NCBI GenBank assembly: GCA_021785935.1
Contig: JAJYOG010000007.1
Location: 417 to 64,416 of the forward strand
Direction of reading: 5' to 3'
Source of the DNA: Actinomycetes bacterium
GTDB lineage: Bacteria; Actinomycetota; Thermoleophilia; BMS3ABIN01
DNA length: 64,000 nt
Shown here one piece after another: positions 1,697 through 13,943 of this stretch. A model generated the notes under the pieces. The model was not told the origin of the DNA and did no database searches. It saw only the letters and a list, made by a program, of their open reading frames with translations. How positions within the stretch are numbered: the stretch's first letter is position 1; every line of letters starts with the position of its first letter. A program made the position numbers and the translations under genes.

Positions 1697-3350
1697 ATTA
1701 ACCATTGAAATTCTCCGATTTTCTATTTAACGGGATCGGAGTTTCTTCAACAATCATGCTTACGGAGATTCTAAGTGGAATATTTCTAGGGTTAGTGACC
1801 AGCTACGCTTTTTGGCATGCGGGACGGAATAAAAGCTGATAAGTTCGAATCCCCTATGGTGTCACGATTTCGGGCATAAAAAAAATGATGAAATGGACTC
1901 CCCCCTCACTTCGGCGGCATCAATGTGCCAAAGTGGTAAATTCTTACCACTTGTCGGCGAGGAGAAAGGAGCCCAACATGGAGGTTACAACCACAGGTCT
2001 CGATCTGGCAAAAAATGTTTTTCAGGTGCACGGTGTGGATCGAAGAGGAAAGACGGTGCTTAGGAAACGGCTGACCAGGAACAAGGTACCCCCCTTTTTT
2101 GCCAATTTAAAGCCCTGCCTGATTGGCATCGAGGCCCAGGGATCAAGCAACCACTGGGCCAGAGAGCTCATAAGGCTGGGACACGAAGTAAAGATAATGA
2201 GTCCCCAGTTTGTAAAGCCCTACATAAAGAGTTCGAAGAACGATCAAAACGATGCCGAAGCCATCTGCGAGGCAGTAAGCCGGCCAAGCATGCGCTTCGT
2301 GCCGCTCAAGAGCATCGAGCAGCAGGACATACAGATGCTGCACCGCATCCGCGAGCTTGCGGTAAAAGACCGAACTGCCAAGGCTAACCAGGCAAGAGGC
2401 CTATTGGCTGAATACGGTATCGTGATTCCTCGGGGAATCACTCGCTTAAAGAAAGAGATGCCGCGTATCTTAGAGGATGCCCAAAACCAGCTTACGCCCT
2501 TCGCCAGAGAGCTGTTTTTGGATCTCTACCATCAGCTAATGGATCTGGATACCGTGGTTAGGGAATACGACCAGAGGATCCTGAAGGAATTTAAAAATAA
2601 TCCAACCTGCCAGAAACTTAGCCAAATTGCCGGCGTGGGACCGCTTACCGCCACAGCCGTGATGGCCAGCGTGGGAGATGCTTCCAGCTTTAAAAATGGC
2701 CGACAGCTATCCGCCTGGCTGGGCCTGGTTCCCCGGCAGCACTCCAGCGGCAACAAAAAGAGGCTCCTGGGAATCAGCAAACGCGGCAACAGTTACCTAA
2801 GAAGCCTGCTGATACATGGTGCACGCGCGGTGGTGCGTCATTCAGACGGCAAAGACGATCCAGCCAGCCGCTGGTTAAACGGCGTCAAGGCCCGTCGCGG
2901 CACCAATCGGGCCACGGTGGCGCTCGCTAACAAGAACGCTCGTGCCATATGGCGGCTGTTAAGAGATGATGTCGAAGCGCAAACAGTTTAAGTTAAGGAG
3001 GTTTCCTTCCAGGGATTGCTCTTGAGGTTCCATTGACGGCAAAACAGGTCGGACCGGCGCCTTCAGAACCTGATTAAGCCATTGGCCTTTTTTAGGCCGT
3101 AAAATGATGAGGCGGAGGCGCGCAGATTCCATCAGGGCCAGAGGATTTAGTTCCTCACTAACAGGCCGGATATATGACTGCAATCCAAACCCAGCTTGCC
3201 AGGAATCTCTTGCATAACGGGAGGAGTCCATATATGGCTTAACTAAGCCATTCCTGAGGGGTAATAAGTTGGTGGACCTTATCGGGTTCGAACCTGAAGC
3301 CTTGGATGTCTTAGTGGACCTCTCCTGAAACGGCTGCATTTCAAATTCCC
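1650..3350 (+). mobile_element. IS110-family insertion sequence (transposase plus long non-coding flanks); boundaries not determinable from sequence alone
   Basis: Contains a DEDD-type IS110-family transposase. The 330-bp upstream and roughly 360-bp downstream non-coding flanks are typical of IS110/IS1111 elements, which lack terminal inverted repeats. The exact ends are not visible without a second copy or an empty site. Confidence 0.45.
1978..2991 (+). CDS. IS110-family transposase
   Basis: N-terminus MEVTTTGLDLAKNVFQVHGVD (the GIDxxK-like start of IS110 transposases). C-terminal LSQIAGVGPLTATAVMASVGDASSFKNGRQLSAWLGLVPRQHSSGNKKRLLGISKRGNSYLR is the conserved IS110 C-domain. The ATG at 1978 is preceded by AGGAGA. 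The ORF-track start at 1885 is probably too far upstream. Confidence 0.85.
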   Translation: MEVTTTGLDLAKNVFQVHGVDRRGKTVLRKRLTRNKVPPFFANLKPCLIGIEAQGSSNHWARELIRLGHEVKIMSPQFVKPYIKSSKNDQNDAEAICEAVSRPSMRFVPLKSIEQQDIQMLHRIRELAVKDRTAKANQARGLLAEYGIVIPRGITRLKKEMPRILEDAQNQLTPFARELFLDLYHQLMDLDTVVREYDQRILKEFKNNPTCQKLSQIAGVGPLTATAVMASVGDASSFKNGRQLSAWLGLVPRQHSSGNKKRLLGISKRGNSYLRSLLIHGARAVVRHSDGKDDPASRWLNGVKARRGTNRATVALANKNARAIWRLLRDDVEAQTV

Positions 3351-3358
3351 GATAAAAT

Positions 3359-3384
3359 CAGGGCCCGCCGGAGGCGGGCCCTGA
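3359..3384 (-). terminator. Rho-independent terminator hairpin closing the dsr operon (CAGGGCCCGCC-GGAG-GGCGGGCCCTG)
   Basis: Perfect 11-bp GC-rich stem about 80 nt downstream of the dsrL stop on the minus strand. It is followed on that strand by ATTTTATCGGGAATTT. Confidence 0.55.
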
Positions 3385-3398
3385 TTGAGTACTATTTT

Positions 3399-3461
3399 CC
3401 TAATTAGTATTGTGTCCCCAAAACTGGGGTGCTAATTAGTATTGTGTCCCCGAAATGGGGG
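3399..3461. repeat. Two direct copies of CTAATTAGTATTGTGTCCCC(A/G)AAA(C)TGGGG; each forms a CCCC-N5/6-GGGG hairpin
   Basis: Read directly at 3399-3431 and 3432-3461, between the dsrL stop (3462) and the terminator hairpin. The GTATTGTGTCCCCGAAAT core recurs at the murC start (32896-32921) in the opposite orientation relative to the + strand. Confidence 0.5.
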
Positions 3462-12178: not shown

Positions 12179-12231
12179 CACAAAAAACAGGACGGAGGCC
12201 GGCCGCACCGGAATCTGCCCGGCCGGCCTCC
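12179..12231 (-). terminator. Intrinsic terminator/attenuator immediately downstream of dsrC (GGAGGCCGGCC-N16-GGCCGGCCTCC followed by GTCCTGTTTTTTGTG on the minus strand)
   Basis: Read directly: an 11-bp perfect GC stem plus a T6 tract on the coding (minus) strand, about 30 nt after the dsrC stop and upstream of dsrK. Confidence 0.6.
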
Positions 12232-12263
12232 GGTTTATACGCCCTAAAAAACGACTGGCTGGT

Positions 12264-12596
12264 TTAGACGCAGCCGGTCGGTTTCGGGAGCCCGGCGATT
12301 TTGCAAGCCTGGAGGGCCGGACCCGCCGGATAAAGGTCATACAGATAAGCGCTGTTGCCCTTTTCCGGACCGAACATTTTCTTCATTTCCTTGATCAGGA
12401 TCTTGATGGCGGGAGCGATGTTGTACTCCGCGTAGTAGTTGCGCAGGAAGTTGACAACTTCCCAGTGGGCTTCGGTCATCTCAACGCCCTCGAGATCGGC
12501 GATGTAGTTGGCTACATCCTCATTCCACTCGTCGAGGTTGATAAGATAGCCATCGTCATCCGTCTCATAGGTTTTGCCATTAATCTCAAAGCTCAT
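12264..12596 (-). CDS. dsrC: DsrC, sulfur-carrier/co-substrate protein of DsrAB
   Basis: 110 aa ending ...ACKIAGLPKPTGCV, the diagnostic C-terminal arm with two conserved Cys. AGGAGG RBS 7 nt upstream of the ATG. Confidence 0.9.
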   Translation of the reverse strand: MSFEINGKTYETDDDGYLINLDEWNEDVANYIADLEGVEMTEAHWEVVNFLRNYYAEYNIAPAIKILIKEMKKMFGPEKGNSAYLYDLYPAGPALQACKIAGLPKPTGCV

Positions 12597-12635
12597 TTTC
12601 CATTTCCTCCTGTTTCGTTGTGACTTTTCTATTTA

Positions 12636-12940
12636 TTTCCCGGGCGAATGATGATCCGTGCTCCCGGCCTTCGTTTCCCGGGAACTGATTATTCCTTACC
12701 CGGACTTTCATTTCCCGGGGACATGATTATTCGTGTCCCTGGACTTTCATTTCCCGGGGACATGATTATTCGTGTCCCTGGACTTTCATTTCCCGGGGAC
12801 ATGATTATTCGTGTCCCTGGACTATATTGAGAGCAGCTTGCTCGCTGGAGCGCCTCTCACTAAACCTTTTATTTCCCCGAGAATAGGTCGTATCCCGGGA
12901 AATTCGTTCCCCGGGGACATGATCATTCGTGTCCCCGGAC
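12636..12940. repeat. Tandem array of about 6 hairpin-forming ~39-bp units (GGACTTTCATTTCCCGGGGACATGATTATTCGTGTCCCT) in the dsrM-dsrC spacer
   Basis: Three identical 39-bp units at 12702-12740, 12741-12779 and 12780-12818. Degenerate units at 12636-12669 and 12670-12705. One further copy at 12907-12940, ending 5 nt from the dsrM stop. Each unit contains the inverted repeat GGGGACA-N10-TGTCCC(C/T). Confidence 0.85.
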
Positions 12941-12945
12941 TCTAC

Positions 12946-13716
12946 TTATCCGGATGCTTCCATTGCCTCTTCCGCTACCGGCGTAGGCTCGGGCTGACCG
13001 CCCTCAGCCCACGGAGCTACTATCCGTTTCTCGCGGGGGTTATCCACCTGGTTGCGGGTCGGGCTGAAGAAGAGGCCCGCAGCGTGCATCAGCTTGCTGA
13101 AGGGAAAATAGGCCAGCAGCAACAAAACCAGACTGAAGTGGATGATAAAAATCGGCTGAGTGGGAAAATCGGCCGGCTTGAAAGCAACCAGGCCCATCAT
13201 GAAATCCTTGACCTGGGCAATGTCGACGCGGAAAAAGTGCTTGGCCAGGCTGCCGGTGCCGGCGATGGCGATCAGCAGGACAAGGAGGAAATAATCGGTC
13301 ATGACCGAGATGAACATGGTGCGGTCGACGATCAGTCTTAGCAGGAACAAAAGGCCAAGGCCGCCCAGCATGATCAGGCCCGGGTACATCTCGAAGGTGT
13401 CGATATAAGCGAGTGCTTCGGGAACGCTGGCGAATACAAAACGGTAATGCTTCACGAGGGCAAGAAGCAGACCAATATGGAAAACATAGCCGGCCAGCCA
13501 GATTACACGGTTACTCTTGAAAAGGCTTTTAAAGAGGACAACTTCGGAGAGGATTCTGGTCGGAACGCCTGAGGCCGTAACGGGCGCCGGAGTCTGCGGA
13601 ATCTTGAGCGGCGCCGGCGTTGACCCGTACTTCCATACCTTGGCGAGAACGCCTACAAGAAAAATTGCAATGGCTGCATACCCGAGAATCGCGAATAATG
13701 CTGTCAAACCGCTCAC
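12946..13716 (-). CDS. dsrM: DsrM, NarI/HdrE-like dihaem b membrane subunit
   Basis: 256 aa, 5-6 TM helices, NarI-like. Lies upstream of dsrC/dsrK. Confidence 0.75.
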   Translation of the reverse strand: MSGLTALFAILGYAAIAIFLVGVLAKVWKYGSTPAPLKIPQTPAPVTASGVPTRILSEVVLFKSLFKSNRVIWLAGYVFHIGLLLALVKHYRFVFASVPEALAYIDTFEMYPGLIMLGGLGLLFLLRLIVDRTMFISVMTDYFLLVLLIAIAGTGSLAKHFFRVDIAQVKDFMMGLVAFKPADFPTQPIFIIHFSLVLLLLAYFPFSKLMHAAGLFFSPTRNQVDNPREKRIVAPWAEGGQPEPTPVAEEAMEASG

Positions 13717-13943
13717 ACCTCTTCCCTTTTGACTGGAGAGTTTTACACTCTACGGACTGACCTGGAAAGGAAAACCGCCCTAAATCCACCCTGGATTAAA
13801 GAGGCCCCCACCCTATACCCCCCGGAGCATTCGCAAAGATATCACCTGGTCCGGAATGTGTCAAACGAAAAGAGACAAATCCGCCCGCCCGGCGCGGCGC
13901 GCCCGCAATGATACCGTAGAGGGTATACGGAGTAAGAGAAAAT

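Follow-up and report, generated by a model that had tools for sequence, protein, structure and literature searches.

REP elements in the malE-malF and hisJ-hisQ spacers stabilise the upstream mRNA, and stabiliser hairpins set differential expression within operons, as exemplified by the 5′ stem-loop of ompA, the Rhodobacter puf operon and E. coli pap. Another class of short repeat, the MITE, carries terminal inverted repeats and a target-site duplication and is usually longer than 50 nt. Short, GC-rich and imperfectly palindromic, with GT(A/G)G at the head, the REPs themselves are abundant, clustered and mobilised by RAYTs (PMC2817692); besides single copies there are highly ordered tandem clusters with as many as about five units, and some copies flanked by A/T runs have been co-opted as terminators (PMC3337134). 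Whether a given REP is present or absent differs between close relatives (PMC2817692, PMC3337134).

Here we describe a hairpin repeat array between dsrM and dsrC in the window, by which we mean the whole 64-kb stretch of DNA that was analysed. That the array is real, as a first-pass annotation of this DNA had claimed, is borne out by Tandem Repeats Finder, pattern counts and a profile. We consider it probable that the array is a generic REP-like interspersed hairpin that has been amplified locally and has at most a non-specific effect at the RNA level, rather than a dedicated dsr regulator, because unrelated sites carry the hairpin and close relatives lack it.

As judged by open reading frames and Pfam matches, the genes run on the minus strand in the order dsrN (15341-13944), dsrM, spacer, dsrC, dsrK, dsrJ, dsrO, dsrP, dsrA, dsrB and a dsrL-like gene; DsrM is 100% identical to P0001, and the position of dsrM is that seen in relatives. 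Coordinates are collected in Table 1.

Table 1. Features of the dsrM-dsrC region, listed from high to low window coordinates.
Feature	Position	Strand	Description
Sigma-70-like promoter 5′ of dsrM	13836..13864	-	TTGACA-17-TATCTT with TG; consensus match only
dsrM	12946..13716	-	NarI-like membrane haem b subunit; Pfam Nitrate_red_gam 5e-11
U1	12901..12940	-	Hairpin CCGGGGACACGAATGATCATGTCCCCGG; includes the exact 24-mer known from other sites
U2	12866..12900	-	Degenerate copy, CCCGGGAU...UCUCGGGG stem; nhmmer E=1.8e-4
Central non-repeat element	12823..12865	-	GTTTAGTGAGAGGCGCTCCAGCGAGCAAGCTGCTCTCAATATA; 12-sequence alignment A1
U3, U4, U5	12706..12822	-	Three identical 39-nt copies: 12822-12784, 12783-12745, 12744-12706
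U6	12669..12705	-	Diverged copy; nhmmer E=8e-7
U7	12631..12668	-	Diverged copy; nhmmer E=1e-7
Unstructured leader	12597..12630	-	About 34 nt 3′ of U7; Shine-Dalgarno AGGAGG (about 12611-12606) before the dsrC ATG
dsrC	12264..12596	-	110 aa, C-terminal ...PKPTGCV; Pfam DsrC 4e-45
Intrinsic terminator after dsrC	12181..12233	-	CCGGAGGCCGGCCGG...CCGGCCGGCCTCCG then TCCTGTTTTTTG

The dsrM-dsrC spacer measures 349 nt and holds seven hairpin units of ~39 nt on the transcribed (minus) strand, three of them identical, one near-identical and three degenerate, in a 2 + 5 layout split by a 43-nt non-repeat element. As all genes are encoded on the minus strand, the unit reads GTCCAGGGACACGAATAATCATGTCCCCGGGAAATGAAA in the transcribed sense and is made up of a GC-rich stem (GGGGACA/TGTCCCC), a conserved loop and an A-rich tail. 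Tandem Repeats Finder delimits an array of 39-nt period at 12635-12823 (4.9 copies, score 269), and a repeat search of the window returns a separated further copy at 12903-12953. A profile built from the units recovers seven copies in the window, every one within this spacer. The pattern GGGGACA-N10-TGTCCC matches four times per strand in the spacer and nowhere else in the window; with up to two mismatches it matches 8 times against 1.6 expected, a count reached in 0/100 shuffles, and the 39-mer occurs 3 times in the window against 0 expected. The earlier description therefore needs some revision: three units are indeed identical, the total is seven by profile, not six, and the intact palindrome ascribed to every unit is present in 4/7, with U2, U6 and U7 retaining a CCCGGG-type stem only. 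Nor is the spacer filled by repeats from end to end, as the non-repeat element (12865-12823) and the ~34 unstructured nt after U7 demonstrate.

In RNA, every unit is predicted to fold into a hairpin with an energy between -10 and -20 kcal/mol: U1 at -20 kcal/mol, the U2 stem at -11.5 kcal/mol, and U3, U4 and U5 each as a -14 kcal/mol hairpin followed by an A-rich linker. For the spacer as a whole, the predicted fold gives z = -4.4 relative to shuffles, and the ribosome-binding site is unpaired in its minimum free energy structure. The three identical copies are the mark of a very recent duplication.

Two readings of the array as something other than a hairpin repeat were rejected. A CRISPR array, likewise built of regularly spaced palindromic repeats, does not match this locus, in agreement with the first-pass annotation: the U3-U5 linkers are identical, the total period is 39 nt, and the array lies within an operon whose members are dsrN, M, C, K, J, O and P, with no cas genes near. 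A repeat protein was rejected as well. The plus-strand reading frame (12648-12830) is, as had been proposed, an artefact of the 39-nt (13-codon) period, and the frames on both strands are by-products of that period without ribosome-binding sites; at a second locus described below, upstream of acsD, neither of the tandem periods (41 and 44 nt) is divisible by three. Because 39 nt equals 13 codons, the sense strand also has a stop-free reading at 12669-12940 (minus), a repeated MSPGNESPGTRII, with no ribosome-binding site.

How do the hairpins relate to transcription? A strong GC-rich hairpin followed by UUUUUU starts 30 nt past dsrC; this terminator is kept in L001, L003, L004, L008, L014 and L208, and L212 has a comparable hairpin. 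The repeat hairpins are different in that, on the sense (minus) strand, they are followed by GGGAAAUGAAAG and not by U-runs, and the terminator scan flags them on the antisense strand only. They are therefore not sense-strand intrinsic terminators, and the attenuator offered by the first-pass annotation falls for the same want of a U-tract. The simplest reading is a dsrM-dsrC transcript that carries the repeat units as internal hairpins.

To compare the spacer across genomes we gathered 80 loci with the DsrC protein and added closer relatives by a DsrM homologue search. As judged by tblastn over the 80 loci, the dsrM-dsrC-dsrK order is confined to one clade, whose MAGs bear the labels Thermoleophilia, Gaiellales or Actinomycetes, and lineages outside it have the order dsrC-dsrM-dsrK. 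Within the clade, L204 (2356-5245) shows dsrM, dsrC, a second dsrM-like gene (245 aa) and then dsrK, with apparent dsrK and dsrC fragments in between, possibly a vestige of the rearrangement by which dsrC came to lie between dsrM and dsrK.

We describe occupancy as the number of hairpins upstream + downstream of the central element, with DsrM identity given relative to the window, which itself (DsrM as the query, 349-nt spacer) carries 2 + 5. No hairpin (0 + 0) is present in L204-207 (DsrM 84%, spacer 110 nt), L209 (82%, 87 nt), L004 and L008 (both 82%), L014 (78.5%) and L212 (77%, 87 nt). A single hairpin lies downstream (0 + 1) in L208 (83%, 137 nt) and upstream (1 + 0) in L210 (80%, 132 nt), and each side holds one (1 + 1) in L003/L211 (80%, 146 nt) and in L001/L002 (78%, 162 nt), the latter with a DsrC 100% identical to that of the window. 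The unit number among close relatives thus ranges from 0 to 7, and those with 0-2 hairpins still keep the flanking promoter-to-terminator layout and the 43-nt element. Hairpins at the same sites in the window and in L001 differ strongly despite the identical DsrC, while those of L208, L210 and L003 are closely similar to window units, so that hairpins are gained, lost or replaced quickly and the conserved feature is the central element. When filled and empty sites are compared (L208 versus L204/L212), ~43 nt are seen to be inserted after TTAATATA; the surroundings are AT-rich, so that a TA duplication there, though possible, is not distinguishable from them.

The central element is the sole part of the spacer conserved in relatives, and it is also present at loci without hairpins. 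Its shared form is GGTTAAGYGAGAGGCGCTCC..YGAGCA...TGCTCTCTTAATATA, with 85% mean column identity in the 12-sequence alignment, and it folds as a predicted stem-loop followed by AAUAUA, the variable positions falling in predicted loops. A search for compensatory changes in the paired columns of the 12 sequences returned none; as these columns are almost all invariant, the covariation test is uninformative for this stem-loop. By eye, the element contains no convincing -35/-10 or -24/-12 spacing for a sigma-70 or sigma-54 promoter, and the promoter scan did not flag it. We regard the element as a candidate processing site or internal promoter. The unusual dsrM-dsrC-dsrK order, the 43-nt element upstream of dsrC and the terminator downstream are all conserved in the clade, and in combination they suggest that dsrC forms a semi-autonomous expression unit within the dsrMKJOP cluster.

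The same gene order is found in a more distant subclade (L006, L010, L016, L020, L021 and L035), whose dsrM-dsrC spacers of 107-120 nt have conserved stem-loops of their own, CCGAAGCTTT...AAGCTCGG and CGAGGT...ACCTCG. From this distinct structured spacer we draw the suggestion that structured RNA 5′ of dsrC, as modelled, may be a general feature of the clade.

Across the 64-kb window and ~0.9 Mb of related loci, the dsr spacer is the only place where the hairpin was detected, and searches of viral contigs, plasmids and full-text literature found no copy. The scanned part of the window's open reading frames contains no Y1 transposase (RAYT, PF01797); an IS110-family transposase was found. Its gene (1885-2991, plus strand) is followed ~360 nt downstream by a perfect hairpin with a 14-bp stem (3356-3386) and then, within the region 3356-3460, by two tandem 32-nt units, CTAATTAGTATTGTGTCCCC(A/G)AAA(C)TGGGG, each a small hairpin; these might be part of the IS end or of its non-coding RNA.

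A metagenome scan with the permissive pattern GGGACACGNNNNATCNTGTCCC gave at least 183 matches at no fewer than 120 loci. The free positions among the pattern matches listed are far from random. Among the same matches, the exact U1 core GGGGACACGAATGATCATGTCCCC occurs at least 11 times, in nine flanking contexts on contigs of GC 0.45-0.63, whereas the chance expectation for the exact 24-mer among the 183 pattern matches listed is ~0.01. Two tandem exact copies of the 24-mer are present in each of L163 (minus strand, about 1065-1003) and L161 (1106-1171), with periods of 41 and 44 nt and identical linkers. In both contigs the hairpins are in sense orientation directly 5′ of the ribosome-binding site of acsD/cdhD. 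The AcsD proteins are 89-92% identical to those of 'Thermoleophilia' MAGs, the lineage label of the dsr relatives, and L161 comes from the same sample as the dsr locus L212. No hairpin was seen 5′ of acsD in L213 (9539-10001), a relative at 92% AcsD identity.

Other copies have quite different neighbours. In L162 (441-462) the core GGGACACGAATAATCATGTCCC, which equals the U3-U5 core and is one base off the U1 24-mer, lies in the 23S-5S rRNA spacer, 10 nt past the 23S 3′ end and antisense to the rRNA. Hairpins of the same family occupy the 23S-5S rRNA spacer of L194 (8536-8557 and 8828-8849), also antisense. The L162 and L194 copies mean that the family has no set orientation. Further 24-mer copies are found 2-120 nt past genes for an MCP, DctM (TRAP transporter), an ammonium transporter and a sugar-isomerase-like protein, and an ABC transporter is among the unrelated flanking genes. 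These gene-3′ copies are mostly in sense and often sit within longer locus-specific stems with A-run/T-run flanks; judged by sequence, copies with such flanks resemble bidirectional terminators. The neighbouring protein in L091 has named homologues only in Deltaproteobacteria MAGs (63-67% identity), a weak hint that this contig may come from a different phylum. A tblastx comparison of the hairpin-bearing contigs with the window and related loci yielded no lineage assignment. Rfam 15, searched at permissive E-values, gave a best E of at least 0.16 on the spacer, with scores far below gathering thresholds; on other hairpin-bearing contigs it yielded noise apart from rRNA and tRNA genes, with nothing at the hairpins of L161, L163 or L188. 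The identical 24-mer is thus present in contigs of very different composition, apparently across lineages.

Two observations that the first-pass annotation had named as counting against a dsr-specific role are thus largely what we find: the hairpin, with its exact 24-mer core, occurs at unrelated intergenic sites, in other assemblies (the 64-kb window holds no second copy), and relatives with the same gene order and layout carry none or 1-2 copies.

The same scan brought up perfect 28-bp palindromes of the form GTAGGGACACGATATATCGTGTCCCTAC, whose tie to the dsr hairpin depends partly on the search pattern. Among the matches listed, this form is present at 26 or more sites and the variant ...GATGCATC... 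(GTAGGGACACGATGCATCGTGTCCCTAC) at 18 or more, in metagenome loci L084-L202 on contigs of GC 0.35-0.73. The palindromes have a REP-like GTAG/CTAC head and are often centred in longer locus-specific palindromes; examples are L088 (105-126), L099 (1979-2000 and 2252-2273, a pair in a REPIN-like inverted arrangement), L104 (1654 and 2278) and L173. The open reading frame between the two L104 palindromes is, by eye, not obviously a RAYT. A CRISPR array in L164 (repeat GTCGCTCCCCGCGCGGGAGCGTGGATTGAAAC) has one copy of the GATGCATC palindrome as its spacer at the trailer end (2947-2980), a hint that the palindrome can sit on DNA treated by a host as foreign. An all-against-all blastp of 1291 flanking open reading frames revealed no gene recurrently linked to the palindromes, and the palindromes were not found in viral contigs, plasmids or the searched literature.

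If the array is a REP-like repeat, its units would have been gained sporadically at two sites flanking the central element, with replication slippage or unequal recombination subsequently raising their number. Transcription from the promoter 5′ of dsrM to the intrinsic terminator 3′ of dsrC would include them in a dsrM-dsrC mRNA, and the hairpins, stable but lacking a U-tract, would leave transcription unterminated. We infer the functional steps that could follow. U1-U2 may act as a barrier to 3′-5′ exonucleolytic decay that protects the dsrM segment, and, once cleavage or initiation has taken place at the central stem-loop/AAUAUA, U3-U7 may shield the dsrC segment as stacked 5′-proximal hairpins, with the Shine-Dalgarno site kept open. 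The net effect, if any, would be a modest shift of dsrC mRNA half-life relative to dsrM, and hence of the dsrC:dsrM ratio, arising as a by-product of a semi-selfish repeat and not as a designed switch. An influence on mRNA stability or processing, already put forward in the first-pass annotation, would accordingly be the most plausible consequence of the array, and it could be tolerable or mildly favoured because DsrC is described as highly expressed (PMC6470260). One point runs against a purely generic REP: at dsrC and acsD, the two loci of this lineage that have the hairpin in a protein-gene spacer, it lies in sense just 5′ of the ribosome-binding site, and such a position before key, probably highly expressed energy genes could reflect selection and not chance.

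An adaptive explanation we regard as unlikely: the units would have been amplified because the hairpins raise dsrC mRNA stability or uncouple dsrC from dsrM stoichiometry, the array being a selected, dsrC-directed post-transcriptional cassette that is effectively dsr-specific in this organism. The sense hairpins adjoining the ribosome-binding sites of dsrC and acsD, the description of DsrC as a highly expressed sulfur carrier (PMC6470260), the structured upstream spacer and separate terminator of dsrC, and the different conserved stem-loops that occupy the same spacer in other subclades would all fit. However, 0-2 hairpins are present in the closest relatives, which share the layout and whose DsrC is identical or nearly so, the hairpin is not limited to dsr, and the identity of three of the copies makes the expansion too young to reveal selection.

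We also regard it as unlikely that the 24-nt hairpin GGGGACACGAAUGAUCAUGUCCCC and the GTAG-headed GTAGGGACACGAT(AT/GC)ATCGTGTCCCTAC are forms of an undescribed module that spreads horizontally among distant anaerobic lineages and has undergone its largest expansion in the dsrC array. Were this true, the module would range over 'Thermoleophilia'-type MAGs of the Actinomycetota and Deltaproteobacteria-like contigs (contig GC 0.35-0.73), would insert in or near terminators, in 5′ leaders and at the centres of existing palindromes, and would multiply in tandem, acting as a mobile RNA-stability/terminator cassette or as the target of a conserved nucleic-acid-binding protein.

It is improbable that a dimeric regulator binds GGGGACA-N10-TGTCCCC in DNA and thereby controls energy genes, dsrC and acsD among them, together. 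The inverted-repeat geometry (6-N10-6) and the presence of the motif 5′ of two anaerobic energy-metabolism genes in one lineage speak for such an operator, but the sites lack conservation at orthologous positions (0 to 7 copies in relatives, and none at acsD in L213), and the sites lie within transcribed spacers or 3′ of unrelated genes, often with the A-run/T-run flanks of terminators, with one copy in an rRNA spacer. Moreover, orthologous hairpins keep the stem and change the half-site and loop (L001 versus the window), and the 39-nt phasing does not correspond to a whole number of helical turns. The dsr-specific element or phased operator array that the first-pass annotation had envisaged is not supported, given a hairpin that recurs at unrelated loci and is few or absent in relatives.

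Finally, we give very little credence to an assembly artefact, in which short-read mis-assembly of a single hairpin inflated the copy number or produced the whole tandem: three copies are 100% identical and a separate Logan assembly from this organism, whose DsrM is 100% identical, breaks off within U1, but collapse or expansion errors could not produce the diverged U1, U2, U6 and U7, the identical block is only 117 nt and fits one read, relatives independently have 1-2 units at the same two sites, and acsD tandem pairs are present in two other assemblies. The Logan contig end fits a real repeat, the exact copy number given here being that of one assembly.

We therefore return to the REP-like interspersed hairpin. 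The array is ordinary in kind, a member of the interspersed-palindrome class that brings no new principle of dsr regulation. For dsr biology it counsels caution, as a striking array need not be a conserved dsr control element; for genome biology it records a REP-like hairpin family in uncultured sulfite/sulfate-reducing Actinomycetota, a lineage in which, to our knowledge, no member of this class has been described before.

Compared with described systems, the array shares with stabiliser hairpins that its hairpins are stable, lack a U-tract and lie, as deduced from sequence, between co-transcribed genes whose products are required at unequal levels, with an open ribosome-binding site downstream. 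Stabiliser hairpins, however, are single, locus-specific and conserved, whereas the dsr hairpin is repeated, variable in number and common to unrelated loci. With respect to REPs, differences concern (i) the host, REPs being described in Gammaproteobacteria and this host belonging to an uncultured actinobacterial lineage; (ii) the hallmark of high genomic copy number (tens to hundreds) and the cognate RAYT flanked by inverted REPs, the 64-kb window having zero further copies and, in its scanned open reading frames, no Y1 transposase, and the copies at unrelated loci coming from other assemblies; (iii) inheritance, which is described as mostly vertical for REP-RAYT systems, in contrast to the identical 24-mer in contigs seemingly of other lineages; and (iv) the GT(A/G)G head, since GTAG precedes the stem by 3 nt in U1 only and the other units have ATAG or AAAG, although GTAG is also found on the L163 copies and on the related palindrome GTAGGGACACGAT..ATCGTGTCCCTAC. 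On the other hand, the array resembles the REP/BIME/REPIN elements of Gammaproteobacteria in its extragenic, intercistronic units of 35-40 nt (REPs have 20-40 nt) with GC-rich stems of 6-10 bp, in tandem clustering (2 + 5 units here, pairs in L161 and L163), and in a presence that varies between close relatives. By this analogy we propose that the array works like a REP cluster; REP-like describes this resemblance and not membership of the REP/RAYT family.
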